Assembly: GCA_001817065.1 (NCBI GenBank) | Contig: MHHQ01000009.1 | Coordinates: 16,211 to 80,210 of the forward strand | Length of the DNA stretch: 64,000 bases | Reading direction: 5' to 3' | Source: Candidatus Andersenbacteria bacterium RIFCSPHIGHO2_02_FULL_46_16 | Lineage (GTDB): Bacteria; Patescibacteriota; Andersenbacteria; UBA10190 | Shown: piece by piece, positions 6,130-61,543 of the stretch | How the letters are laid out: each line of letters begins with the position of its first letter | Numbering within the stretch: position 1 is the first letter of the stretch | Made by a program: the position numbers and the translations under genes | Notes under the pieces: generated by a model | Told to the model about the DNA's origin: nothing | The model's input: the letters and a program-made list of their open reading frames with translations, nothing else | The model's database searches: none

Positions 6130-6181
6130 AGATAATTTTAGCAGCAACGGAGCGGAAATTAGTCAGGCTGGTGATGGGGGA

Positions 6182-45779: not shown

Positions 45780-46526
45780 TTAACGATGGTCATGCAGGAA
45801 GTGTCCTACTTCCGTACCATACATACGCTGCAGGGTTTCGTTAGTCAGGACTTTGTGGGGAGCACCGGCGCAAAGCAGTCTTCTGTTTAAACAGAGTACT
45901 TGGTCGGCATAATTCATAACGATTTGCAGCTCATGACTGATGAGAACCATGGTTAATTTCTCTTCATGTTGGATGCGAGAGAGGAGGGTATAGATGGTGT
46001 CTTGTCCTTCGGCATCAATGCCGGCAGCTGGTTCATCCAGAAGAAGTACTTTAGGATGGTCCATTAGACTGTAAGCGAGAATAATACGCTGCAGCTGACC
46101 GCCTGATAAAACACTAAGTCGACTGTTGATCAAGTGCCTAGTATTAGTTTTTGCAAGGAGGTCGTGCATATGTCGTTTTTCGATGGGGCTTAAACCCAGG
46201 GGGCGTGGTGATTTTAGAGAAAAGAGACCGGCTACAGTCAATGGGAACTGGTGGTCAATGTTGATGTATTGAGGGATATAGGAAACTAAGGGAGCGATTT
46301 TGTGATATTGGTCATGGTTGGTATCCATTATTTCGACCGTCCCGCTTTGTTTAGGCAACAGATTTAAGATGCATTTGATCAGAACGGATTTGCCGGCACC
46401 ATTAGGTCCAATAATAGCGGTAACTGAGCCAATGGGCACTTGAAAAGATATACCATCGATAATGCGGTGTTTGTCCAGCTCCACAACTAAGTTTTGCACA
46501 TTTAACGCCAGGGTCGGGGTGGTCAT
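45780..46526 (-). CDS. Metal ABC transporter ATP-binding protein (ZnuC-like)
   Basis: Walker A GPNGAGKSVL, signature LSGGQLQR, Walker B LLLDEP. 248 aa. Confidence 0.85.
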   Translation of the reverse strand: MTTPTLALNVQNLVVELDKHRIIDGISFQVPIGSVTAIIGPNGAGKSVLIKCILNLLPKQSGTVEIMDTNHDQYHKIAPLVSYIPQYINIDHQFPLTVAGLFSLKSPRPLGLSPIEKRHMHDLLAKTNTRHLINSRLSVLSGGQLQRIILAYSLMDHPKVLLLDEPAAGIDAEGQDTIYTLLSRIQHEEKLTMVLISHELQIVMNYADQVLCLNRRLLCAGAPHKVLTNETLQRMYGTEVGHFLHDHR

Positions 46527-46563
46527 AAAAAATAATTGTTATTCTTTATGTTACACTAAGGTG

Positions 46564-48297
46564 ATGGTGGATGATAATAATAAAAACGTATTAGTGGTTT
46601 TGGCGGAGCAGGGGCTGATAAAAGGCGAGAGTCAGATTAGTGACATCACGCAGCAATTAGATGGTGGTGCCACCCTTGACCAAGTATTAGTGGAAACAGA
46701 TTTGGTTGAGCCGGAGGCTTTGGCCAAAGTCAGAGCGCAAGTGGCGGGGCTGCCTTATGTGGATTTACGGGAGAAACAAATACCTAAGAACGTACTTGAT
46801 ATTATTCCGGAATCAACGGCACGCGGGCACATGATCATCGCTTATGAGCAGACTGATAACGTGGTACGAGTAGCTATGTCTGACCCAAGCGATCGACAAA
46901 TTGTCGAATTTATCCGAAAGAAGGTGGATCGACCAGTGGAGGTAGGTGTCGCATCGGCGGGGGCGGTGAGGAACACATTAGGTAATTATCAGGAGAGTCT
47001 CGAGGCGGAATTGGATGATGTGGTAAGTAAGGAACTAAAATTGGTAAATGAAATAGTGAATGATTTAGGCAAGGCAGCGGAAGACCTACCAATCGTCAGG
47101 ATTACTCAAGCAATTTTAAAACATGCCATAGTGGAGGGAGCGTCAGATATTCACATTGAGCCAACAGATAAGGACGTCATTATCAGATACCGGGTGGACG
47201 GCATTTTACACGATATGTTGGTATTACCCCGGGCAGTTTTAGCTGGATTAGTAGCGCGGATAAAAGTGTTGAGTAATCTGAAAATAGATGAACATCGGTT
47301 ACCGCAGGATGGTCGATTTATGATTGAGTCGGACGAATATAAAGTGGCTTTCCGTGTTTCCACCTTACCGGTGTTTGATGGTGAAAAGGTAGTAATGCGT
47401 TTGTTGGATGAGTCGGGTAAAAAGTTGAGTTTGGATGATATCGGTATTAGACCGGCCGCTTTAGAACTGATGCGACGGATTATAAAACGTCCACATGGCA
47501 TGGTGTTAGTAACTGGCCCAACTGGATCTGGTAAAACAACCACGTTGTACGCGGCCATGAAAGAAGTTAATACGGCGGATGTTAATATCAGCACTATAGA
47601 AGATCCGGTGGAATACCGAATGCCGCGGATAAATCAAACACAGGTTAAACCGCAGATTGGCCTAACTTTTGCTAATGGATTAAGAGCGCTGGTTAGGCAA
47701 GATCCTGACGTTATTATGGTCGGCGAGATTAGAGATGAAGAGACAGCTTCCTTGGCGATCAATGCTGCCTTAACCGGACATTTGGTTCTGACTACTTTGC
47801 ATACCAACAGTGCAGCTGGCGCGATACCGCGGATGCGAGACATGAAGGTTGAGGCTTTCTTGTTGGCCTCAACCGTAAATTTGATAATGGCACAACGGTT
47901 AGTGCGGAAATTGTGCGTGAAGTGTCGCAAGGAGCGAAAGCTAGACGCGCAGGTTATTGGAGAAATAAAGAAGGAGTTTAATAGTGAAGAAATTTTCAAA
48001 ACCTTAGTAAGGGAAAAAGTAGTGAAAGAGGGCTCAGGCTGGAAGGATGTTGTAATTTACCAGGCAGTGGGATGTAAGAGGTGCCACGATGGATATAAAG
48101 GCCGTATAGGGATTTATGAAACTATGGAGATAACACCGGAGATACAGAAGATGATTAAGCCAAGCGTAACAGCAGAACAAATAGAACAAGCGGCCAGAGA
48201 AAATGATGGCATGGTAAGTATGTTAGAAGATGGGATAATTAAAACGGTGGAAGGTACTACTACGCTGGAAGAGGTGCTTAGGGTAGCGCGAGAGTAG
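46564..48297 (+). CDS. pilB: Type IV pilus assembly ATPase PilB (GspE family)
   Basis: GspE N-terminal domain, Walker A GPTGSGKTTT, Asp box, His box and a C-terminal tetracysteine motif (CVKC...CKRC). Start set at ATG 46564 with an SD (aaggtg), to avoid overlap with the convergent ZnuC-like gene. Confidence 0.85.
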   Translation: MVDDNNKNVLVVLAEQGLIKGESQISDITQQLDGGATLDQVLVETDLVEPEALAKVRAQVAGLPYVDLREKQIPKNVLDIIPESTARGHMIIAYEQTDNVVRVAMSDPSDRQIVEFIRKKVDRPVEVGVASAGAVRNTLGNYQESLEAELDDVVSKELKLVNEIVNDLGKAAEDLPIVRITQAILKHAIVEGASDIHIEPTDKDVIIRYRVDGILHDMLVLPRAVLAGLVARIKVLSNLKIDEHRLPQDGRFMIESDEYKVAFRVSTLPVFDGEKVVMRLLDESGKKLSLDDIGIRPAALELMRRIIKRPHGMVLVTGPTGSGKTTTLYAAMKEVNTADVNISTIEDPVEYRMPRINQTQVKPQIGLTFANGLRALVRQDPDVIMVGEIRDEETASLAINAALTGHLVLTTLHTNSAAGAIPRMRDMKVEAFLLASTVNLIMAQRLVRKLCVKCRKERKLDAQVIGEIKKEFNSEEIFKTLVREKVVKEGSGWKDVVIYQAVGCKRCHDGYKGRIGIYETMEITPEIQKMIKPSVTAEQIEQAARENDGMVSMLEDGIIKTVEGTTTLEEVLRVARE

Positions 48298-48403
48298 CAG
48301 TAGCGCGCTAATCAAGACTGGCACATTGTGTTAAGCTGGTGATAAATGGTGGAAATGACGGGCGGCGTAGGGTTTTGTCGTAAGGGTTTTTATAAGTAGG
48401 TTT

Positions 48404-49621
48404 ATGCCAATATATTCTTTCGAAGGACGGCGAGAAAAAACCGGTGAGGTAATAAGGGGCTTACGTGAAGCGCAGTCTCATGCATTACTGGGTCAAGATC
48501 TTCTAACGGAAGGCGTATTGTTGACGCGCTACACACAAAAAGTCCAACGCTTGCCTGGTGCAACGTTGTATTCAATGATTTTTAATCGTGTGCCGGTAAT
48601 CGAGCGAGTGCTTTTTTCGCGCTATTTTTCTCTGATGTTGCGGGCTGGTATGGATGTTAAGCGGTCACTGCAAGCCCTGCAGCAACAGACGCGCAGTAAA
48701 CCCCTGAAAATGGCTTTAGAGAGTGTTTATCATGATATTGAACGAGGTAGAACGTTAGCGGAAAGTATGCAGGTATTTCCGGCGGCATTTCCTCCGATGT
48801 TTATAAGTTTTATTGAGGTAGGTGAAACAACGGGGCGATTACAAGAGTCTTTAGAAGTATTGGCGAGTCAATTGCAGAAGGAATATGAGCTGCGAAGAGC
48901 GGTTAAGGGAGGGTTGATGTACCCGGCAGTGATTATTTTAGCTTTAATCGCAGTGGCCATTGCCATGATGTTTTTCGTTGTGCCAAAACTAGTGGAAGTG
49001 TTTGAAGGTTTTAATGTGCAGTTACCAATAGCAACGCGGATATTGATATTTGCCAGCGATATTTTTCAAAACTATTGGATGTGGATATTTATAGGTGTTT
49101 TTGTGTTGTTGGTAGGTGCTTGGGGTTTGATGCAGGTAAAATCGGTTTATGCAGTGGTAAATGAAGGACTATTACATTTGCCTATCTTTGGTGGAATTAT
49201 TCAAAAAGTTAACTTGGGCAGGTTCGCGCGAAATTTAAGTTCCCTCTTACAGAGTGGAGTGTCCTTTATTAGGGCGCTGGAGATATTAGGTCAAAATACG
49301 CCACATCCCAGTTATGCTCGCGTCTTCTCTGCAGCGCGAGAGCATGTCAGGCAGGGTAAAGAATTGAGCAGCTTTTTGGCTGATTTTCAACGACTGTTTC
49401 CACCGATTGTAATTAACGTGATTAAAGTGGGAGAGGAAACAGGAGCGCTAGACCAGGTGTTGGCTGAGACTGCTTTGTTTTATGAGAGTGAAGTTGACCA
49501 AACTATGAAGAATCTGACGTCTATCATGGAGCCAATATTAATGGTGGCTGTCGGATTGGCGGTTGGTGCATTAGCGGTGTCGGTAATCTCGCCAATCTAT
49601 GACTTGGTTAATGTTGTTTGA
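48404..49621 (+). CDS. pilC: Type IV pilus inner-membrane platform protein PilC (GspF family)
   Basis: Two GspF repeats and three TM helices. 405 aa. Confidence 0.85.
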   Translation: MPIYSFEGRREKTGEVIRGLREAQSHALLGQDLLTEGVLLTRYTQKVQRLPGATLYSMIFNRVPVIERVLFSRYFSLMLRAGMDVKRSLQALQQQTRSKPLKMALESVYHDIERGRTLAESMQVFPAAFPPMFISFIEVGETTGRLQESLEVLASQLQKEYELRRAVKGGLMYPAVIILALIAVAIAMMFFVVPKLVEVFEGFNVQLPIATRILIFASDIFQNYWMWIFIGVFVLLVGAWGLMQVKSVYAVVNEGLLHLPIFGGIIQKVNLGRFARNLSSLLQSGVSFIRALEILGQNTPHPSYARVFSAAREHVRQGKELSSFLADFQRLFPPIVINVIKVGEETGALDQVLAETALFYESEVDQTMKNLTSIMEPILMVAVGLAVGALAVSVISPIYDLVNVV

Positions 49622-51206
49622 TAAGAGGCAAAGCGAGCGTATTAATCCAGTTTGGCGACAATTCTTGTTTAGTGACGCAAGGGATAATGGTGTAGTTAGC
49701 AAAAGACCGAAGAGGAAAGTGGCTTCGTCCGGCTTTACGATTATTGAGGTGCTGGTGGCAACTTTTGTGATAGGGACTGCAATTGTAGGATTGTTTGGAT
49801 TGTTTGCGTTGGGACTGCGATTAGCTGGAGAAAGCGAGAATAGACTAATAGCTATTGCCTTGGCTAATGAAAAGATGGAGTTAATCAGAAATCTGCCCTA
49901 CGTGGATGTCGGAACGGCTGGTGGAATTCCAGCCGGAACTATAGTGCAGGAGGAGTCGATGGTGCGAAATAACGTTAATTATCTGGTTAAAACAGATATT
50001 CGATATGTGGATGATCCTTATGATGGGGTAGCTAGTGGTGGAGGAACAGGCGGATGTGTTGCTGTAGCGCATACACCGCCAGGGCAATCGACAAATTGCA
50101 ATGACTTGTGTGTTAACAGCTCAGCGGTGAATGCGCATTTAATGCATGGTGATGTGATGGGTAATTGTGATGGTACATACAGCGGACCGGATGTACTAAA
50201 TACCGATTATAAACAGGTAAGAGTAGAGGTCTCTTGGCCTAGTCCGAATGAACCACGGCCGATTTTACTCATCACGAAAGTGGCGCCGAATGGCGTGGAG
50301 GGCGGCGAATTGTTTGGGACATTAGATTTTCTGGTCATTAATAGCCAAGGCTTGGGAGTAACAGCGGCGAATGTCAGTTTAATTAATAGTGAAGTGGATC
50401 CGGCGGTAAACTATGCAACGCAGACCAATAGTGAGGGACGGGTAGTAGTACCGGGGCTACCGGAAGGCGCGCAAAATTATAAATTGATGGTCAGTAAATC
50501 AGACCATACCACAGAGCAGACGTTTGATGTCTTGTCCGACTTTATACCTGACCCGGACCATACGCATTTATCCATGCTAATTGGGGAAGTCACACAAAAA
50601 ACTTTCGTGATTGATCTGGCCAGCTCGTTGCAGATCACTTTTGAAGAGGGTGGGGATAGTGTGGAAAATTATTGCGAGGGAGCGCCACCTCAACCGTTAG
50701 CAGCGATTGATTATAGTTTGCGAGGAACTAAAACGATTGGGATGGATGACGTTGGTGATCCAGTATATGTGTACGATTATGCCGGTGCGTCGGACGCAAA
50801 CGGGCAAAGTAATCATGAAAATTTGGTATGGGATACTTATGAATTAGATCTAGTAGATGGAGTTGTGTGCGATATTAAGGAAACAAGTTTGATCAGGCCA
50901 GTAACTATTAATCCTGGGGAAGATTTAGCCATGACGGTTAAATTAGTGAAGCATACGGAGGTTTCTTTGCACGTAACGGTGGTTGATACGGCGGGTTTGG
51001 CAGTGGACAACGCCACGGTACGCTTGATAGGAGATGGTGCGGATGAAACACTCGGAACCGGACCGTGGGGTCAAATATTATTTGCTGATTTGCCGGCTAA
51101 TGACCAGTTCGTTTTAATAGTGCAAGCGCCTGGTTATGCGGAATGGCAGGATAATGTTGATGTGGAAGGTACTTCATTGGTACAAGTGGTCATGAGCAGT
51201 CTTTAA
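49599..51206 (+). CDS. Prepilin-type (PilV-like) protein with large C-terminal carboxypeptidase-regulatory-like beta-sandwich domains
   Basis: Class III signal ...SSG|FTIIEVLVATFVIGTAIVGLFG, with an alternative GTG start at 49719 that gives a 5-aa leader with GAGGA SD. PilV-like helix. Two CarboxypepD_reg-like repeats (GxxVxxDxxGxxVxxA...PGxYxLxVxAPGY). Confidence 0.7.
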   Translation: MTWLMLFDKRQSERINPVWRQFLFSDARDNGVVSKRPKRKVASSGFTIIEVLVATFVIGTAIVGLFGLFALGLRLAGESENRLIAIALANEKMELIRNLPYVDVGTAGGIPAGTIVQEESMVRNNVNYLVKTDIRYVDDPYDGVASGGGTGGCVAVAHTPPGQSTNCNDLCVNSSAVNAHLMHGDVMGNCDGTYSGPDVLNTDYKQVRVEVSWPSPNEPRPILLITKVAPNGVEGGELFGTLDFLVINSQGLGVTAANVSLINSEVDPAVNYATQTNSEGRVVVPGLPEGAQNYKLMVSKSDHTTEQTFDVLSDFIPDPDHTHLSMLIGEVTQKTFVIDLASSLQITFEEGGDSVENYCEGAPPQPLAAIDYSLRGTKTIGMDDVGDPVYVYDYAGASDANGQSNHENLVWDTYELDLVDGVVCDIKETSLIRPVTINPGEDLAMTVKLVKHTEVSLHVTVVDTAGLAVDNATVRLIGDGADETLGTGPWGQILFADLPANDQFVLIVQAPGYAEWQDNVDVEGTSLVQVVMSSL

Positions 51207-51228: not shown

Positions 51229-51876
51229 ATGGAGCGTGGCATAGGGCAACAGGGGCAAAGTAGGCAAAGGGGTCTGACAATAATGGAAATATTAGTGGTG
51301 GTATCTATCAGCTCGATAGTACTAATGGCACTACTACGTTTTTTAGTGGCCGGTTATCCTTTGTCAAAGACAATGGTGTTGCAGCAGCGCTCAACAGAAA
51401 CGGCCAGGGTTAATTTGAAACGGATAGTGAAAAGTTTACGCGAGGCTCGCCATTCTGATACTGGGGCGTATCCGTTGGTAGCAACCGAGCCGCAAAGGAT
51501 TGTTTATTATGCTAATGTGGATAGCGATCCGGCGACAGAAAAAGTTCGCTTGGAATTGTCGGGTAGCGACTTGGTCCGGGGCGTAACTAAGCCGACTGGA
51601 GACCCATTAATATATGACCAAAACAATGAGGTGACAGCGGTGATTATCGCTACGGTCAGGAATGGGACAGAGAAAGTATTTAGTTATTACACTGGAGAGT
51701 TCCCGGTGGATACAGGCGAGTTAACGCCAACGGATTTAACTGAGGTTAAATATATTGCATTCAGTTTACTTATTGATGCCGATCCGGCGGTTGAGCCACC
51801 CGCAATTCAGGTAAAGTCACAAGTACAACTGCGTAATTTGAAGACAAATTTAGGTCAAGTGGTGGAGGCGCCGTAA
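51229..51876 (+). CDS. Minor pilin-like prepilin-type protein
   Basis: QRG|LTIMEILVVVSISSIVLMALL N-terminal methylation-type helix. 215 aa. Confidence 0.6.
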   Translation: MERGIGQQGQSRQRGLTIMEILVVVSISSIVLMALLRFLVAGYPLSKTMVLQQRSTETARVNLKRIVKSLREARHSDTGAYPLVATEPQRIVYYANVDSDPATEKVRLELSGSDLVRGVTKPTGDPLIYDQNNEVTAVIIATVRNGTEKVFSYYTGEFPVDTGELTPTDLTEVKYIAFSLLIDADPAVEPPAIQVKSQVQLRNLKTNLGQVVEAP

Positions 51877-51988: not shown

Positions 51989-54343
51989 ATGGGGATGATT
52001 AAAAGACAAGCCGGTCAATCGTTAGTGGAAGTATTAGTGGCGGCATTTATTTTGGGCATATTGGCTGTAGCGCTGGCGGGCGTCTCAACTCTGGGAACGA
52101 AAACGGCGGGGGTCAGCGAGCAAAGAACGGTGTCGCAAGCAATAGCTAACAAAAAAGAGGAGATCCTCAAGTTAACACCTTATTTAGATGTTGGTTATGT
52201 AGGGGGGGGAATACCGGACGGTATTTTTGCTGCCAGTGAAATGGTGAGCATGAATAACCAATCCTATGAAGTAAAAATGGAAATTACGATGATTGATGAT
52301 CCGGCGAATGGCTGCCTGGATGCTGGTGGTACTTGCGATGGCAGCACATTAGATGAAGATACGGCGGATTATAAAAGGGTAGTGATTAGTATTAAATATC
52401 CCTCATCTAATAATGCGACAGATGAGGTTAAAGTCACCGTTCTGAGTATGCCTGGCCAAGCGGAAGATTTATTGAATATGGTGGCGTGTGATTCGACTGA
52501 TACGTCGGGATCTTGCGGAGCCGGGAAGATCTGTTGTGACGAAAGATGTTTGCCCAGGTGCGAGCCTGGCTCTTGTCCGTCGGGCTACACGTGCGCAGCA
52601 GATGGATGTGGATGTGAAGTGGAAAGCTGTCCGACCTGTGGCATGGCGTCTTGTTTCGATGACTTTGAGTGCGCTGCCACTAACCAGCAATGTAAAAATG
52701 GTAGTTGTGTATATAAATGCGTTGATGATGGTGATTGCGGGGGAGAGACTTGCGTTTATGGCATCTGTCAATCTTTTTGTATCAACAATGGCGAATGCAA
52801 TGATGACCAGTTTTGCCAAGACGGAGTATGTCATATGAGCACTTGCCTTGATAATTTCGATTGCCGAGTAGGTTATAGTTGTGTTGATTTTCAATGTCAA
52901 CCGACCGACTGCGTCGATGCCGGTTATTGCCAGTCTAATTTCGAGTGCGTCGAGAATACCTGTATGCCGGCCGCATGTTCGACTGGAACTTGTCCGGGCA
53001 GTTGGGAATGTGTGTTTGGCAAATGCCAGCCGCCGCAGTGTACGGCTGCGCAATTGTGTAATGGACGATCTTGCGTGGAAAGCAAATGCCAGCCGCCATC
53101 CTGTGAAAACCATGAACAATGTGGCGGAATAGCTGTTTGTTTAGGCGGGGTCTGTTCAAGCCCACCGGCATGCGGAGCGGGTTGTCCGGTATCACTATCA
53201 TGTGTGTATGGCCAGTGTTATAAACCCAATATGAGCGTGACGCCATTGATTGTTTCCGAAGAGTGTCCGGCACCGCTCGCTTTTCCATGCCTGCCGGCGA
53301 TGGGTGAGATTACGGTGAATTGGCTGCCGGTTGAAGGCCAAAATTATTGTGAGCCAGCGGTAACAATTGGCTCTTGTACGACGGGCGCTGATCCGGCAGC
53401 CCAATGGAGTGATACGGATGGAGATGGAATTACGAATTGCGGAGCGGTTGGGACTACACCAGCGATAAATGCTTGTACACCAATAAATCCCATTGAATGC
53501 GGTGCTAGTTGTCCGGGGTGCCCGAGTTGTCCCGCTAACGAGTCTTGTATAGAAGGCCAGTGTATGCCGGAGCAACCTTGCCCGGTTGGGTATGCTAACC
53601 ACCCGACTATCGATGGAGCATGCGCAGAGGAAGTGCCGGTGGTACCGCCCATTACGTGTCCGCCGGAAATATGTTCTGGCGCAGCTTATTGTTCGGCTGG
53701 CCAGTGTAAGACCGCCGGTTGTTTAACTGACGATCAGTGCGGAGCTCATGGTAAATATTTATGCCGTAATAATATTTGTATACCGTCACTGGCGAGAGAC
53801 TGCGAGTATTGCATTCCAGCAGAACGAATCCAGTATTGTTATCAGGAAGATTGTTCGACTTGCGGCCAGGGGCCTGGTTCGGCATGCACAGATACACTGG
53901 GTAAGCCGAGCGTAGTAGTATGGGCACAGGATAGTGAAATAGGTTGCAACTATTTGAATTGCGAATACGCACCAACTGTCTGCGGTGACGGTATTTTACA
54001 GCCGGGAGAACAATGTGACGCTCCCGATGATAGCAATTGTCCCGGAGAGTGTGGGCCGCAAGGTGGCTCGATTGAACCAGCTTGCCAGTGCCCGGCACCG
54101 GTATGTGGTAACGGAATACTTGAGCTAGATGAGGAGTGTGATGCACCGCAAGATGCCGCTTGTCCAGACCAATGCGGATCTGCTGGAGCGCCGCCATGTA
54201 TCTGTCCGACACAGGCGGCGCCACCTTTATGTGGAAATGGCTTAATAGATACTATGTTTGGGGAAATGTGTGATTGGTCAGTGGGTGATGCTACGTGTCC
54301 AGGAGGTTATTGCCTTGATATATGTGAGTGCGCGTATCCGTAA
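51989..54343 (+). CDS. Giant cysteine-rich prepilin-type protein (PilV-like N-terminus plus ~35 tandem Cys-rich repeats incl. Myxococcus-type disulfide repeats)
   Basis: AG|QSLVEVLVAAFILGILAVALAG prepilin helix. ~110 Cys in 784 aa in CxxxxC-x4-6-C repeats. C-terminal CGDGILQPGEQCDAPDD..., CGNGILELDEECDAPQD..., CGNGLIDTMFGEMCD repeats match the Myxococcus cysteine-rich repeat (TIGR02232-like). Confidence 0.7.
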   Translation: MGMIKRQAGQSLVEVLVAAFILGILAVALAGVSTLGTKTAGVSEQRTVSQAIANKKEEILKLTPYLDVGYVGGGIPDGIFAASEMVSMNNQSYEVKMEITMIDDPANGCLDAGGTCDGSTLDEDTADYKRVVISIKYPSSNNATDEVKVTVLSMPGQAEDLLNMVACDSTDTSGSCGAGKICCDERCLPRCEPGSCPSGYTCAADGCGCEVESCPTCGMASCFDDFECAATNQQCKNGSCVYKCVDDGDCGGETCVYGICQSFCINNGECNDDQFCQDGVCHMSTCLDNFDCRVGYSCVDFQCQPTDCVDAGYCQSNFECVENTCMPAACSTGTCPGSWECVFGKCQPPQCTAAQLCNGRSCVESKCQPPSCENHEQCGGIAVCLGGVCSSPPACGAGCPVSLSCVYGQCYKPNMSVTPLIVSEECPAPLAFPCLPAMGEITVNWLPVEGQNYCEPAVTIGSCTTGADPAAQWSDTDGDGITNCGAVGTTPAINACTPINPIECGASCPGCPSCPANESCIEGQCMPEQPCPVGYANHPTIDGACAEEVPVVPPITCPPEICSGAAYCSAGQCKTAGCLTDDQCGAHGKYLCRNNICIPSLARDCEYCIPAERIQYCYQEDCSTCGQGPGSACTDTLGKPSVVVWAQDSEIGCNYLNCEYAPTVCGDGILQPGEQCDAPDDSNCPGECGPQGGSIEPACQCPAPVCGNGILELDEECDAPQDAACPDQCGSAGAPPCICPTQAAPPLCGNGLIDTMFGEMCDWSVGDATCPGGYCLDICECAYP

Positions 54344-54823
54344 ATGATGTCTGGAGAAGAAGGAATGAACAACAGCAAAAACAATCAGGCGGGCGGGGTG
54401 ATGTTGTTGGTTTTAATAATAATGATAATTTTTATTGTTATTGCGAGCGCTACCTTGCGCTATGTTATTAGACAATCACATGAGACGATTGACCAGGAAC
54501 AAGAGGAGCAAGCGTTTAACGCGGCAGACAGCGGCGTATCGTATGTGTATTGGTTGTTGGATCCGGCAGGGGGACAGAAAGTCGTGACAGATATTCAGGC
54601 GGTAACCAAGACGGTATATGACGACTTGGATGCAGCAATTGGTACGTTTACGATCGATGACATTGTTACAGATACTAACGAAATTGAATTCACATCAACC
54701 GGGAGAGATATTGCACTGCCTGATCGCTGCCAAGTGATACAAGTTCGTTTGCGACAAGTAGAAGCGAATGAAAGGCATGTCTTAACGGACTGGGATAATT
54801 TGGTGGGGTATCCTTGTTCGTAA
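54344..54823 (+). CDS. PilX-N-like minor pilin/pilus assembly protein
   Basis: Hydrophobic N-terminal helix (GGVMLLVLIIMIIFIVIASATLRYV) followed by EQAFNAADSGV, resembling the PilX_N domain. Confidence 0.5.
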   Translation: MMSGEEGMNNSKNNQAGGVMLLVLIIMIIFIVIASATLRYVIRQSHETIDQEQEEQAFNAADSGVSYVYWLLDPAGGQKVVTDIQAVTKTVYDDLDAAIGTFTIDDIVTDTNEIEFTSTGRDIALPDRCQVIQVRLRQVEANERHVLTDWDNLVGYPCS

Positions 54824-54848: not shown

Positions 54849-56486
54849 ATGGGAAATCGCCAGCGAGGGAAATTCTGGAAGCTGATCAAGCAGATAGTCA
54901 AAGGGGCTGAGGATGGGGTAACCGTTGTGGAGTTATTGGTATTTATTGGCATCGGATCGGTTCTGATTGCGACGCTAGCGGTGATCGTATCTGGAACGTC
55001 TCGCGTCTCGCGGCAGCAGATGGAGCAAGGAGTAATCACAGAAAAGGCGCGGGTACAATTAGAAAGAATAAGTGATGAAATCCGGAATGCCCAGTATGTG
55101 GACTGTAACTTGGATAGCGATACGGCTGATGTCAATGAATACTGGTTGTACGGCGCGAGTGATTGGGAAATAATTGTTTTAAGCAATGTGGATGATGATG
55201 TGGAAGCAGAACGGGTGAGATATTTTGTGCAGGCTAGTACTACCGGTGAAACAAAGAAGTTAAAGAGGGCGGTGACGCAGCCAGGTGCATCATTGTGCGA
55301 TTTTTCACCTAATTCTGAAAATATCACAACAGTCCTAGATGGTTTAGTAAATGTGACACTCGACCCTGACAGGCCGCTTTTTCAGTATTTCATGAGTGGC
55401 CAGGATGCAGCCCGTTTAACCACGCCGGTGATACGATTATCGAGCGTGCTTAGGGTGAGGTTGCATTTAGTAATTGACGAGGATATAAACACCGATCCGG
55501 CGCTGGTGGAGGTGGTGACTGATGTGGTACCGCGCGGCGTGGAGGATCCGGGAGCATGTGTGATCAATAGGGTTGATTTTTATCGATACCATATGACCGA
55601 ATCGTTTGCCGATGCCGCTTTTATTTCATGTCAGTCTCATTGCCTAGGGATAGCAGTGCTACCGCCTGGTGAATGTTGTCCCTGGTCAACGGCTTTTTAT
55701 CTGGATTCAGCTACTGGCTGGGTGTGGTCCACGTGCCAGTGCGCTGATACCTATTTGCCGCCGGATATAATTCCAGAAAATGTTAATCTTAACCAATATA
55801 CGTCTTCTGTGAGAGGGTGTTTGGACGGAACCAGATGCGCGGGGCTAAAGGGCGAGGCGGTCTGTGAGGCAGGCTGCCTAGACACACCAGGAGAATGCGT
55901 GTGTGTTTGTCCGGCCGGATTACCGCCGACGACGGCGTGCAATGACGGGGTTGATAATGATGGGGACGGGACGGCAGATTGTTCGGGTTGTGGCGGTGTG
56001 GCGGGTTTATTAGATGATCCAGGATGTTCGGGTTACGGCGATAGCTCAGAGTGGGGCACCACCCAATGTGATGACGGTATCGATAATGACGGTTGTAACG
56101 GAACTGACTTTAAGATTAACGGGACCGGAGATATTGACTGTGTTGATCCGGCGGATGACGACGAAGGCCCTTGTTTGAGTGGTTCTCCGTCAGGTTGCGT
56201 GCCAACACAGATTCCGAGCATACCACAATGCAGTGATGAATTGGATAATGACTGCGCAGGTGATGGGATTGATTATGCCGGTGGGGCGGGGGACTTGCAG
56301 TGCCAAAATATTAACGATAATAATGAATGGTCAATCAACAAGCAGTGCAATGATGGGTTTGATAATGATGCAGACGGGACAGTTGATTGTTGGTGGCTAT
56401 TTTGTGCTAGATTAAGACCTGATGATAAGTCCGCGGACACTGATTGCACCGGTCCAAATGACGACAGTGAGTTTTCGGATGTATAG
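54849..56486 (+). CDS. Prepilin-type protein with C-terminal MopE/thrombospondin-type-3-like Asp-rich Cys repeats
   Basis: AEDG|VTVVELLVFIGIGSVLIATLAV prepilin helix. The C-terminal 200 aa contain CNDGVDNDGDGTADC, QCDDGIDNDGCNGTD, CSDELDNDCAGDGID and QCNDGFDNDADGTVDC repeats (putative Ca/metal-binding, C.DG.DNDCDG..D). Confidence 0.65.
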   Translation: MGNRQRGKFWKLIKQIVKGAEDGVTVVELLVFIGIGSVLIATLAVIVSGTSRVSRQQMEQGVITEKARVQLERISDEIRNAQYVDCNLDSDTADVNEYWLYGASDWEIIVLSNVDDDVEAERVRYFVQASTTGETKKLKRAVTQPGASLCDFSPNSENITTVLDGLVNVTLDPDRPLFQYFMSGQDAARLTTPVIRLSSVLRVRLHLVIDEDINTDPALVEVVTDVVPRGVEDPGACVINRVDFYRYHMTESFADAAFISCQSHCLGIAVLPPGECCPWSTAFYLDSATGWVWSTCQCADTYLPPDIIPENVNLNQYTSSVRGCLDGTRCAGLKGEAVCEAGCLDTPGECVCVCPAGLPPTTACNDGVDNDGDGTADCSGCGGVAGLLDDPGCSGYGDSSEWGTTQCDDGIDNDGCNGTDFKINGTGDIDCVDPADDDEGPCLSGSPSGCVPTQIPSIPQCSDELDNDCAGDGIDYAGGAGDLQCQNINDNNEWSINKQCNDGFDNDADGTVDCWWLFCARLRPDDKSADTDCTGPNDDSEFSDV

Positions 56487-56971: not shown

Positions 56972-58510
56972 ATGGGGCACCTAGCGCAACTTTATGAATG
57001 GCGAAACTGGTCAAGCAAGACTTGGCTAGTTTTAATTTTGCTGACAGCCAGCGTGGTTACCCATTTTATCTGGTTTGGTTATCCTACGCAGGTAGTGTTT
57101 GATGAGGTGCATTTTGGTAAGTTTGTGACGGCATATTGCTGCACCCACCAACGTTTTTTTGACATTCATCCCCCCCACGCCAAGTTGTTAATCGCTGGTA
57201 CGGCATATGCCTTAGGCTATCGGGGCGGGGTAAGTTTTGAGAATATAGGTCAAGACTTTGGCAGTGTGAGTACGTGGCCACTGCGCGTTTTTCCGGCAAT
57301 AACTGGAGTGCTGTTACCGCTGGTTATATATGCATTACTTAGGCAATTAAAGGCGTCAGCCGCAGCGGCGTTTTTTGGCGGCATGCTGGTTGTGTTGGAT
57401 AATGCGTTAACGGTGCAGACAAGGATGATCGCTTTAGACGGTTTATTACTAGTGTCAACCTTTGGAGCGCTGGCGGTATATTTAGCAGCGAGAAAAGAGA
57501 TGCAGCAGTACAGAGAGTCCCCAGATCAGAATGGAGGACAAAGCAACTGGTGGAGTAGGTTGACTGGCGGGATCAGGATGCGACGAGAGGGGTGGATGTT
57601 TGGTCTAGCGGGGGGTCTGGCTGGTTTAGCGGTGGGTACCAAGTTTACAGGGCTCACAGCCGGTGGATTGTTAGTGCTATTGTTGGGTGCGTGGCTGGTG
57701 CAGATTAGATCATGGGGGGAAATTAAGCGGTGGAGGACAGCGGTGGTGTTTATAGTACTGGCGGCGATCGTGGTGTATGGGTTGGGCTGGATGATACATT
57801 TTATGATTTTAACGGAAGCAGGGGACGGGGACTTGTGGCGCAAACCACAATGGGAACAACCGATCATGGCTAGTTTTTGGCGGGAGACAAAAGCTATACA
57901 CAAATTAATGTATGACGCTAATAGTGGATTAAAAGCGGAACACCATGATGCCAGCCATTGGTGGTCTTGGCCTTTAGTACAGACCCCGGTATTTTATTGG
58001 CAATTGAGTCAGAACGAAGGAGGGGTAAGTCGATCGGGATCGATCTACTTCCTGCCAAATCCGATTTTGTGGTGGGGTACATCCGCCGTGTTTGCGGTAA
58101 TACTTTTATCGATGCTGATAACGGGGGTAAACAATTTAGTCAGATGGCATGGCGGGTGGCAAAAGAGAGTCGGGCGAATGAGGCAGCAGTGGCAACAGTC
58201 GTTCTTGAAACAAGCATGGTTACCGTTAATGGGCTATGCAGCATCATATATACCATTAATGAAAGTGACGAGAGTGTTATTTCTTTATCACTATCTGACA
58301 CCATGGTTGTTTTCACTATTGGTGGTGGTGTTGTGGTTAGAACGAATAGGCTGGATTGCACGGGAGGAGATAGTTGATCAGCCAAAGAGGTATTGGTTGG
58401 TACTAGCCATTATCCTTGGTGCCTTTATATTTTTTAGTCCACTGACATACGGATTTCTATTGTCGGAAGTGAGCCGGAGCTGGCTATTTTGGTTTAAGAC
58501 ATGGTTGTAA
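56972..58510 (+). CDS. PMT-family (GT39-like, dolichyl-phosphate-mannose-protein mannosyltransferase-type) integral-membrane glycosyltransferase
   Basis: VVFDEVHFGKF...FFDIHPPHAKLL, the loop-1 DE motif and flanking residues characteristic of protein O-mannosyltransferases. About 11 TM helices, 512 aa. Confidence 0.75.
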   Translation: MGHLAQLYEWRNWSSKTWLVLILLTASVVTHFIWFGYPTQVVFDEVHFGKFVTAYCCTHQRFFDIHPPHAKLLIAGTAYALGYRGGVSFENIGQDFGSVSTWPLRVFPAITGVLLPLVIYALLRQLKASAAAAFFGGMLVVLDNALTVQTRMIALDGLLLVSTFGALAVYLAARKEMQQYRESPDQNGGQSNWWSRLTGGIRMRREGWMFGLAGGLAGLAVGTKFTGLTAGGLLVLLLGAWLVQIRSWGEIKRWRTAVVFIVLAAIVVYGLGWMIHFMILTEAGDGDLWRKPQWEQPIMASFWRETKAIHKLMYDANSGLKAEHHDASHWWSWPLVQTPVFYWQLSQNEGGVSRSGSIYFLPNPILWWGTSAVFAVILLSMLITGVNNLVRWHGGWQKRVGRMRQQWQQSFLKQAWLPLMGYAASYIPLMKVTRVLFLYHYLTPWLFSLLVVVLWLERIGWIAREEIVDQPKRYWLVLAIILGAFIFFSPLTYGFLLSEVSRSWLFWFKTWL

Positions 58511-58782: not shown

Positions 58783-60171
58783 ATGAATAAGAGGAGGACA
58801 GACGGGTGGAGCAAGGGTGGCGGCGTGTTGGTGATGACACTGGTGTTTGTGAGCATGTTCTTAGTGATTTTTATTGGTATCTCTGGCATGGTGAGCCGGA
58901 CTTATCATGAAACGGTTCTCCAGGCGCATGACGAATTGGCTTTTCAGGTGGCCGAGGCGGGACTAAATTATGCACGATGGAGATTGGCTCATAATGGTGA
59001 TGATTTAGCAGCGGCGGAGGGCGTGTTAACAGATCAGTTAGCGGGTGATTTGGGTGAGTATGAATTGACGTTTGCGCAATCGCAGCCAGGCAATTCGGTA
59101 ATCAGAATAACTTCAGTAGGAACCACCTTAAGCCAACCGATGAGGCAAGTGACCTTGAATGCATTATACGGAAAGCCTTCCTTGGCGCGTTATGCTTCCA
59201 TTACTAACAATGATGTTTGGTACGGAGGAACCATTTCTGGTCCGGTTCATGCTAATGGGGGCATTAGAATGGACGGACAGTCAGATAGTTTAATGACCTC
59301 AGCTAAAGAAACCTATGCCTGCCAGCCTTACCATGGATGTTCATCGCCTTATCAAACTAAGCCGGGTATTTGGGGGACGGGTGAAATACAAGAACTGTGG
59401 GAATGGCCAGTAACCAATGTGGACTACGCTTCGATTACCCTAGATTTATTGGATATGCGTGCGGCCGCTGATGAAACCGATACGCACTATGGGTCATCCG
59501 GTGGCTTTGGTTATCAGATAGAGTTTGCCAGTAATAATACTTACTCCATTTACAAGGTGACGAAGAGAGGATCAAATATTTGGTCCTGGACTCATGAAAC
59601 GGATTGGCAATATACGTCGCATGATGTGGGTAGTAAAACATTAATTGAAACAAGGGCAGTGCCGTCAGGTGGAGTGATTTATTTAGACGATAGGACTTGG
59701 GTAAAAGGAGATATTCGTGATCGGGTGACGGTGGCGGCTGGTGTTTCTCCGGCAACCCCGTCTACCAATGTTGATATCATAGTCAATGGAAATATCAGTT
59801 ATGGCGATGTGCATGATGGGACACGGGCTTTTGCTGCTGTAGCGCAACGGCATATTCAAATTCCTTGGTCTGGTGTACCTGATAATATGCGTATGGATGG
59901 AGCATTTGTTGCCCAGAACGGATCGTTTCATCGGCGATATTATCCGAATTGCTGTGGGGCACAAGCCCATCGTCTAAAGACAAGCTTAACGCGGTTTGGC
60001 ATGGTGGCAAGTAACGGGGTGCCGGCCACGGCGTGGCTCGAGAACGGCAATATAGTTAGCGGTTTTAGATCGGGCCAGGCTACTTATGATGCCAACCTAC
60101 TTTATGGTCCACCACCTTATTTTCCGGCCAACAGCCAATATGAATTAATCTCTTGGGAGGAGGACCAGTAG
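58783..60171 (+). CDS. PilX-N-domain pilus-associated protein with large C-terminal domain
   Basis: GGVLVMTLVFVSMFLVIFIGISGMVSRTY...AFQVAEAGLNYARWRL matches the PilX N-terminal domain. 462 aa. Confidence 0.6.
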   Translation: MNKRRTDGWSKGGGVLVMTLVFVSMFLVIFIGISGMVSRTYHETVLQAHDELAFQVAEAGLNYARWRLAHNGDDLAAAEGVLTDQLAGDLGEYELTFAQSQPGNSVIRITSVGTTLSQPMRQVTLNALYGKPSLARYASITNNDVWYGGTISGPVHANGGIRMDGQSDSLMTSAKETYACQPYHGCSSPYQTKPGIWGTGEIQELWEWPVTNVDYASITLDLLDMRAAADETDTHYGSSGGFGYQIEFASNNTYSIYKVTKRGSNIWSWTHETDWQYTSHDVGSKTLIETRAVPSGGVIYLDDRTWVKGDIRDRVTVAAGVSPATPSTNVDIIVNGNISYGDVHDGTRAFAAVAQRHIQIPWSGVPDNMRMDGAFVAQNGSFHRRYYPNCCGAQAHRLKTSLTRFGMVASNGVPATAWLENGNIVSGFRSGQATYDANLLYGPPPYFPANSQYELISWEEDQ

Positions 60172-60514: not shown

Positions 60515-61543
60515 ATGATAGGCATTGATATCTCAGACGGGTCAATCAAATTAGTACAACGATCAAAGACGGAAGGGGATATGTTGCAGTCTTTTTGTTG
60601 GCGGGTGATTGAAGAAGGAGTGATAGAACGAGGTGTTATTGTTGAACCTAAGAAGCTTCGCCAAGCGATTGTGCAAACTTTTGAACAATGCCATCTTGAA
60701 GTAAATACAGATGATGCGGTGGTGGCATCAATTCCAGAGACACAGTCTTTTCTGCGTGTCATTGAGGTGCCGGATATGACGGACGAAGAAACGGACGAAG
60801 GAGTGCGCTGGGAAGTAGCCCAGCATATCCCCTTTGGCTTGGAAAATGTTTATATTGACTGGCAACCCATTCCCCGTGGTCACCAGGCGGCGAAGGGGAT
60901 TAGAGAGGTGCTGGTTGGCGCTGCCCAGAAAAAGGTAGTTGATCCGTTGTTGGCAGTATTGAAGGATCTGGACTTGGATGTGGCGGCGCTGGAGTTGGAA
61001 AGCCAGGCAATTGTTCGTGCTTTAATATCACCGGAACTGCAGAACAAACAAGGTATGCTGATAGTCGATTTAGGTGGCAGTGCGACGAATGTCATTATTC
61101 ATGATCATGGAGCGATGAGATTTACGGCTAGTTTGCAGCACGGGGTAAGAAGAATAGCTGAAACATTGTCGCATAAAGACAAGGAAGAATTACTAGTGCC
61201 CACCACCACAGATATACCGACAGAATCGGCTAATCGGATCGCGGAAGCAATGCGACCAGCACAAGAGGAATTAGTGATGGAGATTAAAGGAATTGTAGAA
61301 TTTTATAACGGAATCGATGACAAACATGAGGTGACGGAAATATTATTGACTGGCGGTGGATCTAACTACCCGGGTCTGGATCGAGTGGTCGCCAAGTATT
61401 TTGATGATGTGCATGTACAGCGAGGCAATCCCTGGGTGAATTTGTTACCGCACAACCAGATGAGCAAGGCGCCTATGTCACTCAAAGAGTCGGTGCATTT
61501 TTCCACGGCGATTGGTTTGGCATTAAGAAAGATAGACGCATGA
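60515..61543 (+). CDS. pilM: Type IV pilus assembly protein PilM (actin-like ATPase fold)
   Basis: MIGIDISDGSIKLV start and DLGGSATNV in the second actin-fold half. 342 aa, followed by pilN/pilO-like genes. Confidence 0.8.
   Translation: MIGIDISDGSIKLVQRSKTEGDMLQSFCWRVIEEGVIERGVIVEPKKLRQAIVQTFEQCHLEVNTDDAVVASIPETQSFLRVIEVPDMTDEETDEGVRWEVAQHIPFGLENVYIDWQPIPRGHQAAKGIREVLVGAAQKKVVDPLLAVLKDLDLDVAALELESQAIVRALISPELQNKQGMLIVDLGGSATNVIIHDHGAMRFTASLQHGVRRIAETLSHKDKEELLVPTTTDIPTESANRIAEAMRPAQEELVMEIKGIVEFYNGIDDKHEVTEILLTGGGSNYPGLDRVVAKYFDDVHVQRGNPWVNLLPHNQMSKAPMSLKESVHFSTAIGLALRKIDA

Follow-up and report, generated by a model that had tools for sequence, protein, structure and literature searches.

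Gene content of the pilus locus

The analysed stretch of 64,000 nucleotides (the window) harbours a type IV pilus gene cluster with the layout pilB-pilC-(minor pilins)-PMT-pilMNO, in which one of six pilin-like genes codes for a cysteine-rich modular protein of 784 residues (Table 1). The pilB/pilC region (46462..49621) also yields matches to TIGR02538 and TIGR02120. At the other end of the cluster, pilM is accompanied by genes for two small membrane proteins that take the places of pilN and pilO, and the product of 62070-62714 shows a weak GspM-like match.

Table 1. Features of the pilus cluster, the cysteine-rich pilin gene and the oxidative-folding genes in the window
Feature	Position	Strand	Evidence or remark
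DsbA-like thioredoxin, CPAC	4858-5628	+	Thioredoxin_4 / DSBA
VKOR, CPYC	5552-6037	+	VKOR 6e-26
Second DsbA-like protein, CPFC	7558-8307	+	Thioredoxin_4 / DSBA
pilB-type assembly ATPase	46462-48297	+	T2SSE 7.7e-136
pilC/GspF platform protein	48404-49621	+	T2SSF 3.6e-57
GspI-like modular pilin paralogue, 535 aa, CarboxypepD_reg domains	49599..51206	+	PF13620 1.3e-13
Minor pilin, 215 aa, tentatively J/PilW-like	51229..51876	+	N_methyl 25.3 bits; weak PRK10557
Cysteine-rich modular minor pilin gene	51989..54343	+	784 aa, stop codon included
Class III (prepilin) leader, residues 1-9	51989..52015	+	sequence, PF07963
Pilin module, residues 1-166	51989..52486	+	GspI/PilV class; only 2 Cys
Irregular Cys cluster, residues 167-221, 12 Cys incl. 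CxxC pair C214/C217	52487..52651	+	
Nine tandem 4-Cys units (18-23 aa each), residues 222-412	52652..53224	+	unit table, shuffle test
Family-specific middle region, residues 413-655, 28 Cys (C658 just past end)	53225..53953	+	
WSDTDGDG motif, residues 473-480	53405..53428	+	invariant in all homologues
Three 6-Cys Myxococcus-type units, starts at residues 665, 706, 748	53981..54340	+	
Pilin-like protein, 159 aa, without Glu5, tentatively K/PilX/ComGG-like	54344..54823	+	
Second Cys-rich modular pilin, 545 aa, 32 Cys	54849..56486	+	J-like N-domain + acidic double-disulfide-type repeats
PMT-family protein O-mannosyltransferase	56972..58510	+	PMT 5e-31, PMT_4TMC 9.6e-34
Second K-like protein, 462 aa, without Glu5, large unassigned C-terminal part	58783..60171	+	
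pilM	60515-61543	+	PilM_2 8.5e-38
Two small membrane proteins, pilN/pilO positions	within 60515..62714	+	gene order only

The minor pilins of the cluster fall into three pairs of paralogues, of the I-, J- and K-like type. The N-terminal domain of the cysteine-rich pilin is paralogous to the adjacent 535-aa pilin (BLASTP E 4e-23), the 215-aa minor pilin to the N-domain of the 545-aa pilin (E 2e-15), and the 462-aa protein to the 159-aa protein (E 5e-13 over the N-terminal ~100 residues). From weak HMM matches, we tentatively assign the 545-aa protein as a J-like and the 159-aa protein (ComGG, 5.5e-4, and GspK, 0.019) as a K-like partner. The 545-aa protein scores 27 bits with NF033662, below the cut-off of 41; the 462-aa protein has no family match. 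Tip subunits of the GspK, PilX and ComGG type also lack Glu5. Searches of the PDB sequences with profiles of the J-like and K-like pilins, of the N-domain and of the cysteine-rich part returned only insignificant or helix-only pilin matches.

Loci at 56-70% identity retain this gene order, in which pilB and pilC are followed by five pilin-like genes, PMT, a sixth pilin-like gene and pilM. Orthologues of the 545-aa pilin with 30-32 cysteines are present in all syntenic loci, and the PMT gene is syntenic in L001, L007 and L008-L011. Proteins 100% identical to the 545-aa pilin occur in NCBI MAGs of Candidatus Andersenbacteria, and near-identical copies are listed under Candidatus Andersenbacteria from groundwater. 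A prepilin peptidase (Peptidase_A24) was not found among the window ORFs scanned, an Rfam search of the whole window gave no match, and scans for promoters and terminators stayed at background level.

The ORF list confirms the exact boundaries, strand and length proposed earlier for the cysteine-rich pilin gene. When compared with its 70%-identical orthologue (locus L007), the differences are distributed over the first, second and third positions of the sense codons as 165/114/418, and this third-position excess is among the evidence for a real gene under selection. It is a real, conserved gene of an uncultivated, ultrasmall (CPR) groundwater bacterium, with 5-6 homologues at 56-99% identity. 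Opposite to it lie antisense ORFs of 102-216 aa, which the sequence-only reading had taken for artefacts. Only 21 of the 785 sense codons are TTA, CTA or TCA, which would be read as stops on the opposite strand in the codon-aligned frame. On the basis of codon usage and of the substitution pattern, in which the differences follow the sense codon positions, we likewise rejected these ORFs as genes and regard them as by-products.

The prepilin leader and the pilin module

The leader MGMIKRQAG is directly followed by QSLVEVLVAAFILGILAVALAGV, so that the junction reads MGMIKRQAG↓QSLVE, with predicted cleavage after Gly9, Gln at +1 and Glu at +5, and then a hydrophobic helix. Pfam N_methyl (PF07963) scores 27.2 bits (cut-off 21.2), and TIGR02532 scores 13.9 bits on the full-length protein (cut-off 16.3) and 16.8 bits on the N-terminal fragment alone. 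The leader length of nine residues and the pattern G↓QS(L/M)(V/I)E are common to all homologues; across the alignments Gly-1 is conserved and Glu+5 (E14) is invariant. The prepilin-type N-terminus, which had been proposed from the single sequence, is thus borne out by the profile score above cut-off and by the homologue alignment.

In all homologues the +1 residue is Gln, and not the hydrophobic Phe, Met, Leu or Val expected of type IV pilins. In type IV prepilins this position is typically hydrophobic and becomes N-methylated once the leader is cleaved, and Gln is atypical. Many +1 residues are tolerated by bacterial prepilin peptidases, however, and Gln at this position does not exclude processing.

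The N-domain has a GspI-like fold, i.e. a long alpha1 helix (residues 12-62) and a small antiparallel sheet of four strands, with the conserved pair C109/C116 located in a loop. Scores with the models TIGR02523 (18.9-21.3 bits, cut-off 52.2) and TIGR01707 (15 bits, cut-off 44.35) stem mainly from matches to the helix.

Architecture of the cysteine-rich module

The 784-aa protein contains 98 cysteines (12.5%), not ~110 as first counted. Nor is it composed almost entirely of repeats, as had been stated, since residues 1-166 constitute the pilin domain and residues 413-503 and 598-664 are cysteine-poor, irregular and family-specific stretches. The cysteine periodicity withstood scrutiny: in residues 167-784 gaps of 4-6 residues make up 62% of all Cys-Cys gaps versus 24% in shuffles (0/5000 reach 62%), and in residues 214-412 they make up 95%. 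Gaps of 5 and 6 residues together account for 50 of the 97, gaps of 1-3 for 10. From the proposal of tandem CxxxxC(x4-6)C modules the regular array could be retained; the regular unit, however, is the 4-Cys unit C-x5-C-x5-C-x4-C-x4, which occurs in nine copies (residues 222-412). Because the gene is devoid of tandem repeats at the DNA level, we consider the repeat units old and diverged.

Both repeat families were missed by whole-protein Pfam and NCBIfam scans, and fragment scans were required. Pfam DUF7107 (PF23416) scores only 8.6 bits on the cysteine-rich pilin (gathering score 24.6, E 3.2). Positions ~50-250 of the family profile pick up proteins with DUF7107 (E 1e-15 to 1e-46), whose own PF23416 scores are 54-116 bits. 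An hhalign comparison between unit profiles gave 96.4% probability, a value that is inflated because the units were picked by their cysteine pattern. By these comparisons the nine 4-Cys units are distantly related to modules of the DUF7107, Dickkopf_N and EB type.

At the C-terminus, the three predicted CG(D/N)G...E.CD units are indeed present with six cysteines each, and homologues P0003, P0004 and P0009 have a fourth. Their affiliation with the Myxococcus repeat type, also suggested before, is marginal by HMM and clear by profile search. TIGR02232 scores 21.6 bits on the C-terminal fragment alone (cut-off 20.8, 3 stretches) but does not appear in the full-length scan, and Pfam DUF4215 (PF13948) reaches 17.4 bits against a cut-off of 27. 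Profile positions 485-615, which cover these units, match hundreds of proteins and account for most of the search output; DUF4215 was detected in four of eight C-terminal-region matches scanned with Pfam (best, P0013, E 2.5e-79).

The middle region has no Pfam or NCBIfam match, and profile positions ~250-485 find no match in any representative outside the family. It comprises three further, looser hairpin-type cysteine units (residues 504-530, 557-577 and 578-597) and two cysteine-poor stretches (~427-461 and ~640-659) that are predicted as beta in a low-confidence model. The WSDTDGDG motif is of the DxDxDG type and possibly represents a calcium-binding loop; Pfam TSP3_bac matches the pilin with an E value of 1.7 only. 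An AF2 model of the full-length protein, computed from the 6-sequence family alignment, has a pLDDT of 39.8 and a pTM of 0.21 and is unusable for the cysteine-rich module.

Cysteine conservation and oxidative folding

Across the homologues 93 of the 98 cysteines are invariant. All 98 are kept in the 70%-identical orthologue, with 44 of the codons swapped between TGT and TGC, which indicates that the cysteines of the module are under purifying selection. There are two cysteine-loss events, each of which removes a CxxC pair; C214 and C217, for instance, are lost together in homologues P0004 and P0009. The total number of cysteines is even in every homologue, and the units carry either four or six.

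Upstream in the window, two DsbA-like proteins and a VKOR are encoded, with Thioredoxin_4 and DSBA matches of 6e-30 and 5e-24. An unrelated ROK-family gene on the minus strand is located between these genes (4858..8307). In view of the paired losses, the even cysteine counts and the presence of this DsbA-like/VKOR set in the window, disulfides in the module are much more likely than metal clusters.

Proposed role and alternative explanations

We favour the view, with a probability of roughly 60%, that the gene codes for a modular minor pilin of the GspI/PilV type, which exposes a cysteine-rich stalk or adhesin of 618 residues at a type IV pilus tip. The protein would be inserted into the membrane via its class III signal peptide and cut after Gly9 by a prepilin peptidase encoded outside the window, and its extracytoplasmic module could acquire ~48 disulfides through the DsbA-like/VKOR system. 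The GspI/PilV-type module would then join the J-like (545 aa) and K-like (159 aa) neighbours in a priming complex, which would end up at the pilus tip. There the disulfide-stapled array, with ~12 DUF7107-type hairpin units, the family-specific middle with its DxDxDG loop and the three Myxococcus-type units, may be shown as a stiff, protease-resistant stalk that bears, or itself forms, the surface by which a host cell or a solid substrate is bound. We infer that the protein is cleaved, disulfide-bonded, located at the tip with these partners, rigid and adhesive; the designations 'rigid' and 'tip adhesin', which the sequence-only reading had introduced, derive from its GspI class, from the genes nearby and from the analogy to modular pilins.

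Unlikely, yet of appreciable probability, is the scenario of a membrane-anchored cell-surface protein outside any filament, in which the pilin-like helix, cleaved or not, is a mere anchor in the cytoplasmic membrane. The cysteine-rich rod would then cross the wall or S-layer and act as a spacer in the envelope or as a fixed surface adhesin, or belong to a short T2SS-like pseudopilus, and the protein would be of local interest only. There is no major pilin gene within the window; however, related CPR bacteria have major pilins at other loci, and their big minor pilins are pilus-associated (PMC11623550). The full T4P-type pilB, pilC and pilM genes with a pilN/pilO-like set and six pilin-like genes likewise speak against a solitary anchor, and monoderm pili are able to incorporate bulky modular pilins (PMC8179133).

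A rather doubtful proposal takes the three paralogous pairs as two complete alternative I/J/K tip sets that one pilus machine would use as interchangeable tips. The 'plain' set would then consist of the 535-aa protein with its carbohydrate-binding-like domains and the 215-aa and 462-aa proteins, and the 'armoured' set of the 784-aa and 545-aa proteins, both disulfide-rich, together with the 159-aa protein. The armoured tip might be a rigid host-envelope probe of tens of nanometres, disulfide-stapled and possibly calcium-stiffened, that reaches through or locks into the envelope of the host. To our knowledge, no interchangeable armoured pilus-tip device has been described.

Metal binding, which had been raised as a possibility from the sequence alone, fared poorly. 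The protein would in this case be a pilus-displayed, metallothionein-like or zinc/copper-chelating array with thiolate ligands for metal capture or redox chemistry. The cysteine content of 12.5% and the few CxxC, CxC and CC motifs agree with such a role, as do a ZnuA gene within the window and a Zn/Mn-type ABC importer (ABC-3 and ABC_tran) that is encoded divergently beside pilB in all syntenic loci. However, the dominance of 4-6-residue gaps, in the entire module as well as in the regular array, is not the pattern of metallothioneins, and the units of four or six cysteines, the even totals in all homologues and the paired losses led us to reject a metallothionein-like array. In addition, the related DUF7107/Dickkopf/EB and DUF4215 repeats are extracellular modules from proteins with secreted-type modules, and an extracytoplasmic oxidising system is encoded in the window. 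The functional tie to the adjoining transporter was given no weight, as this adjacency is known among close relatives only. Altogether, the metal array is improbable.

A generic secreted cysteine-rich protein whose ordinary signal anchor resembles a prepilin by chance, for which the unusual Gln at +1 and the TIGR02532 score below cut-off (a narrow pass with the N-fragment alone) could be adduced, is very unlikely in the light of the PF07963 score, Gly-1 and Glu+5 in all homologues, the GspI-like fold, the paralogy with the adjacent pilin and the position of the gene in the middle of the pilus operon.

Comparison with known systems and occurrence of the fusion

According to the prevailing view, CPR bacteria (Patescibacteria) live attached to other microbes, and among their attachment organelles type IV pili have the best support; the composition of the pilus tip in CPR is known for a few cultivated Saccharibacteria only. 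In the groundwater CPR lineage studied here, ~130 extracellular cysteines, strongly selected, would reside on two tip-type minor pilins beside a cysteine-poor paralogue set. Should the module prove to be the disulfide-stapled stalk or adhesin proposed here, a disulfide-repeat class would be added to the catalogue of modular pilins, and puzzling large cysteine-rich surface proteins of CPR bacteria would be tied to a defined presentation machine. The protein would then also offer a compact target, suited to expression, in the search for the ligand of an uncultivated episymbiont on its host or on a surface.

The protein shares the layout of the modular pilins described by Raynaud et al. 2021 (PMC8179133): a small class III pilin module (residues 1-166) is followed by a bulky module that is not pilus-specific, with repeats of types that otherwise occur in proteins other than pilins. 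Like these, it is encoded among minor pilins in a pilus operon, in a bacterium that is probably monoderm, and would be expected to be tip-exposed. The CarboxypepD_reg architecture of its 535-aa paralogue is among the commonest of modular pilins, and the large modular minor pilins of S. sanguinis are proposed or proven adhesins (PMC8179133). Whereas S. sanguinis PilB (vWA) and PilC (lectin) have globular modules, the cysteine-rich pilin has a 618-residue array made up of cysteine repeats throughout. In the 32,511 characters of text searched from the three supplementary files of PMC8179133, there is no entry for the Myxococcus repeat (IPR011936 or PF13948).

In TM7x, a saccharibacterium, large modular minor pilins are likewise proposed or proven adhesins, and PilX2 is required for efficient host binding (PMC11623550). 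TM7x PilX1 and PilX2 resemble the present case in that the largest minor pilins of a CPR episymbiont carry accessory C-terminal domains and are candidate tip adhesins. Their modules are a beta-jelly-roll and a beta-propeller instead of cysteine repeats, their carriers are X-type and not I-type, and we found no sequence relationship between them and the cysteine-rich pilin. GspI/XcpV/EpsI, the tip pseudopilin of the T2SS with PilV as its T4P counterpart, has ~120 aa and no extra module, and the system described here is T4P-like, not a T2SS. In CPR Peregrinibacteria, large cysteine-rich extracellular proteins with weak similarity to the Myxococcus repeat have been proposed to function in attachment and rigidity (Anantharaman et al. 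2016, PMC4736985); these have signal peptides and ~1650 aa on average, and they were described neither as pilins nor in pilus operons.

TIGR02232/DUF4215 and DUF7107 proteins have the 6-Cys CG(D/N)G...E.CD and the 4-Cys C-x5-C-x5-C-x4-C units in common with the cysteine-rich pilin, but they are large and lack a prepilin N-terminus. Among the best 150 of 2076 representative proteins that share the cysteine-rich repeats, the family's own representative is the only one with a prepilin N-terminus, and the other 149 have none, in support of the initial impression that the fusion is unusual. It is limited to one small clade, with ~6 sequence clusters among billions of proteins, and gives a known kind of protein a rare, new architecture. 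A literature search returned no paper that combines cysteine-rich pilins with Patescibacteria and none that names DUF7107. The repeat-sharing proteins are up to 6364 aa in length, and some also carry secreted-type modules (trypsin, dockerin, PKD, lectin). One of them joins a phage T7 tail-fibre N-domain, and a weak, at-threshold fibritin C-terminal match with no significant stretch, to cysteine repeats that plausibly form a shaft.

A conserved gene for a probable modular minor pilin

The 784-aa product of the ORF at 51989-54343 (+), here called the Cys-rich pilin, is a modular minor pilin of the GspI class with a probability of about 0.9. It joins a pilin module (residues 1-166) to a Cys-rich module (residues 167-784). 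The sequence-only reading had placed the gene exactly (start, end, strand and 784 codons); its estimate of about 110 Cys was too high, as we counted 98 (12.5%), 96 of which sit beyond residue 166.

Relatives are few. Only five turned up among 5.8 billion clustered proteins, at 56-99% identity, and of 1.84 billion representatives searched by HMM just one, P0009, was a full-length family member. In an alignment of five full-length sequences, 93 of the 98 Cys are invariant. When the gene is compared with its 70%-identical orthologue, which resides in a MAG labelled Candidatus Saccharibacteria, codon positions 1/2/3 carry 165/114/418 differences and 98/98 Cys are kept, even though 44 of them have swapped between TGT and TGC. 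Strong purifying selection thus acts on the sense frame. The substitution pattern, together with codon usage, marks the antisense ORFs (102-216 aa) as by-products, as had been supposed. A stop in the codon-aligned antisense frame needs a sense TTA, CTA or TCA, i.e. one of 21 among 785 codons, and the two longest ORFs of that frame could be stopped only by these codons.

The entire locus is repeated in GCA_001817175.1, GCA_001817145.1 and GCA_003501005.1, whose copies differ from the Cys-rich pilin of the window only at G41V and S49A. Both non-synonymous changes (52109-52111 and 52133-52135) lie in the alpha1 helix; V41 and A49 are also present in the other assemblies and in all more distant homologues, and the exact window sequence is absent from the protein collection searched. 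Of five minor-pilin genes compared between the window and four other public assemblies, all are identical except those of the Cys-rich pilin and the upstream 535-aa pilin. The latter gene differs slightly in two near-identical assemblies, by one silent change (L009) and by two positions translating to X (L010). NCBI MAGs named Candidatus Andersenbacteria bacterium RIFCSPLOWO2_12_FULL... and Parcubacteria group bacterium contain proteins with 100% identity to the 545-aa pilin; the RIFCSP sample code presumably refers to the Rifle aquifer. From these matches and the MAG of the orthologue, the genome belongs to the CPR/Patescibacteria.

Features of the pilus gene cluster (window positions) and of the Cys-rich module (residues of the Cys-rich pilin)
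Feature	Position	Strand	Remarks
pilB-type ATPase	46462-48297	+	
pilC / GspF	48404-49621	+	
I-like pilin	49599-51206	+	535 aa, with CarboxypepD_reg
Pilin	51229-51876	+	215 aa
Cys-rich I-like pilin	51989-54343	+	
Irregular Cys cluster	residues 167-221		12 Cys
Nine 4-Cys units	residues 222-412		
Family-specific middle region	residues 413-655		two Cys-poor stretches and three more hairpin-type Cys units
Three Myxococcus-type 6-Cys units	residues 665-784		each begins CG(D/N)G, at 665, 706, 748
Pilin-like protein	54344-54823	+	159 aa, without Glu5
Pilin	54849-56486	+	545 aa, 32 Cys in acidic double-disulfide-type repeats
PMT-family O-mannosyltransferase	56972-58510	+	
Protein	58783-60171	+	462 aa
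pilM	60515-61543	+	
Two small membrane proteins	61540-62714	+	pilN/pilO positions

Duplicated pilin sets and a proposed role at the tip

Homologues were found in related pilus loci with the same gene order, at 56-70% identity and in the near-identical assemblies. The window ORFs scanned include neither a major pilin nor a prepilin peptidase or a secretin. The PMT gene inside the cluster is syntenic in all related loci, and the pilins, with their Pro-, Ser- and Thr-rich linkers, may be glycosylated by its product.

In both type IV pili and type II secretion, assembly on the platform begins with the minor (pseudo)pilins of I, J and K type, which prime polymerisation and finally occupy the tip of the filament; the subunit of K type has no Glu5, the Glu at +5 of the mature pilin. 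The pilin-like genes at 49599-51876, 51989-56486 and 58783-60171 form three paralogous pairs that resemble these types: an I-like pair (535 aa and 784 aa), a tentative J-like pair (215 aa and 545 aa, E 2e-15) and a K-like pair without Glu5 (159 aa and 462 aa, E 5e-13). The J and K labels are based on weak NCBIfam matches (PRK10557, ComGG, GspK) and found no support in PDB sequence searches. The pairs suggest two complete tip sets, one Cys-poor and one Cys-rich, served by one pilB/pilC machine. The 545-aa pilin, two genes downstream of the Cys-rich pilin, is also a Cys-rich modular protein, with acidic double-disulfide repeats of the type CNDG.DNDGDG..DC (NF033662, 27 bits, under the cut-off of 41). 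Relatives with 42-49% identity to it bear different modules (LVIVD, Glug), a sign of module swapping on that carrier. What intrigues most is that the operon pairs the 784-aa pilin with another Cys-rich one and that its I/J/K sets are duplicated.

We propose that the Cys-rich pilin would be exported and cleaved after Gly9, that a DsbA/VKOR system would oxidise its Cys-rich module, and that it would join J- and K-like partners at the pilus tip. There it would display a stiff, protease-resistant, disulfide-stapled stalk, and the family-specific middle region or the terminal units would bind a host cell or surface. The odds lean slightly towards such a tip-displayed stalk or adhesin. That the protein is instead anchored in the membrane as a surface protein, or acts as a pseudopilus component, and never enters a long filament, is unlikely though not negligible.

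The tip-displayed stalk or adhesin has precedents. Modular pilins, i.e. functional modules grafted on a pilin carrier, are proven for S. sanguinis PilB and PilC, and a catalogue comprises >1200 such proteins with 264 architectures, many from CPR bacteria (PMC8179133). Pilin plus PF13620 is among the commonest of these (PMC8179133), and the upstream 535-aa paralogue is likewise of this kind. The largest minor pilins of Saccharibacteria TM7x bear accessory domains, and efficient host binding there requires PilX2 (PMC11623550). In CPR Peregrinibacteria, large extracellular proteins that are rich in Cys and weakly similar to Myxococcus repeats were proposed as attachment or rigidity factors (PMC4736985).

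Anatomy of the Cys-rich module

The suspected Cys periodicity is non-random. In residues 167-784, 62% of the Cys-Cys gaps span 4-6 residues, compared with 24 ± 4% in 5000 composition-preserving shuffles, 0/5000 of which come as high; the proportion is 95% within residues 214-412. The regular unit, C-x5-C-x5-C-x4-C-x4, comprises 18-23 residues. Since no tandem repeat was found at the DNA level of the gene, the units must be old. On the Cys-rich pilin itself Pfam DUF7107 scores merely 8.6 bits. A family profile over the 4-Cys region finds proteins at E 1e-15 to 1e-46 that carry DUF7107 at 54-116 bits and show weaker Dickkopf_N and EB hits. Unit against unit, hhalign gave a probability of 96.4% for the 4-Cys units and DUF7107, an inflated figure because the units were chosen by their Cys pattern. 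In P0076, a 566-aa protein from outside the window, tandem DUF7107-like Cys repeats occur together with a phage T7 tail-fibre N-terminal domain and seem to form the shaft of a phage fibre, a hint that this repeat type is able to build fibre shafts; the protein's match to the fibritin C-terminal region is weak, at threshold, with no significant stretch.

The middle region was matched by no representative outside the family in the profile search. Its two Cys-poor stretches are drawn as beta strands by a low-confidence model, and its WSDTDGDG motif, invariant across homologues, looks like a putative DxDxDG calcium loop (Pfam TSP3_bac on the Cys-rich pilin was insignificant, E 1.7). The Myxococcus-type nature ascribed to the C-terminal units held in part: TIGR02232 reached 21.6 bits against a cut-off of 20.8 when the fragment was scanned alone and only then, whereas DUF4215 stayed at 17.4 bits against 27. 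The majority of profile-search matches fall on this region; DUF4215 occurs in four of the eight matches scanned with Pfam, the best being P0013, another outside protein (E 2.5e-79). The homologues P0003, P0004 and P0009 have a fourth unit.

Disulfides or metal

The full-length AF2 model is unusable (pLDDT 39.8), and indirect evidence favours disulfides as the state of the Cys residues. Each repeat unit has 4 or 6 Cys, and the Cys number is even in each sub-region and in each full-length homologue (98, 98, 98, 104, 100, 100). The two clear loss events, in P0004 and P0009, each removed a whole CxxC pair (C214 with C217, C508 with C511), and just 10 of 97 Cys-Cys gaps span 1-3 residues. The related repeats are found in large proteins with additional secreted-type modules (trypsin, dockerin, PKD, lectin). 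Moreover, genes for two DsbA-like thioredoxins with membrane anchors (CPAC, CPFC) and for a VKOR lie in the window and make up a complete extracytoplasmic oxidation pathway. All these points speak against the metal binding that the sequence-only reading had raised as a possibility, and nothing specific favours it. Its sole hint is the adjoining Zn/Mn-type ABC transporter, but this adjacency is limited to close relatives; a metal-thiolate array is highly improbable.

The genes for the CPAC protein, VKOR (CPYC) and the CPFC protein are grouped at 4858-8307, interrupted by a ROK-family gene that is read from the other strand; in the ORF list, the VKOR ORF shares 77 bases with the first DsbA ORF. 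Genes for an ABC-3 permease and an ABC ATPase (44643-46526, -) are divergent neighbours of pilB in all related loci, and a ZnuA-type metal-binding protein gene (1589-2599, -) lies about 42 kb from them.

The pilin carrier

The prepilin N-terminus was recognised correctly. A 9-residue basic leader ending in Gly (MGMIKRQAG) is followed by QSLVEVLVAAFILGILAVALAGV, with Glu at +5 and a hydrophobic helix, and the Pfam N_methyl score of 27.2 bits exceeds the gathering score, 21.2. Residues 1-166 were modelled with pLDDT 71.6 (AF2, 7-sequence alignment) as a long alpha1 helix (12-62) and a four-stranded sheet. On the Cys-rich pilin, the HMMs curated for GspI and PilV remain far under their cut-offs and match mainly the helix; the model-based GspI-class assignment is one at fold level, not family membership by sequence. 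The module shares 33% identity with the N-domain of the upstream 535-aa pilin (E 4e-23). As N_methyl (PF07963) is above cut-off, Gly-1 and Glu+5 are conserved in all homologues, the fold is GspI-like and the N-domain is paralogous to the adjacent pilin, a generic secreted protein with a prepilin-like N-terminus by chance is effectively excluded.

The +1 residue of the predicted mature protein (51989-52030) is Gln (G/QSLVE) in every family member, which is unusual among bacterial prepilins; Phe, Leu or Val occupies this position in the three neighbouring pilins.

Relation to known pilins and other observations

The modular minor pilin is a known kind, whose diversity is described as very large. 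The architecture of GspI-type carrier, about 12 DUF7107-like units, unique core and 3-4 Myxococcus-type units appears undescribed. In those parts of the modular-pilin supplementary text covered by a term search, IPR011936 / PF13948 (Myxococcus repeat) is absent (PMC8179133). Our literature search found no paper joining Cys-rich pilins with Patescibacteria and none mentioning DUF7107. The fusion is indeed unusual, as a prepilin N-terminus occurs in 0 of the other 149 among the 150 best of 2076 repeat-sharing representatives, and it is limited to a single small clade.

All 2-kb blocks of the window (1-64000) have a strongly positive GC skew (0.17-0.33), cumulative skew climbs without a turning point and most genes are on the + strand; thus, the window lies within one replichore. 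A small ORF at 9599-9994 encodes 9 Cys in 131 aa and has no family match, and a cupredoxin-like, membrane-anchored protein is encoded at 14277-14885.
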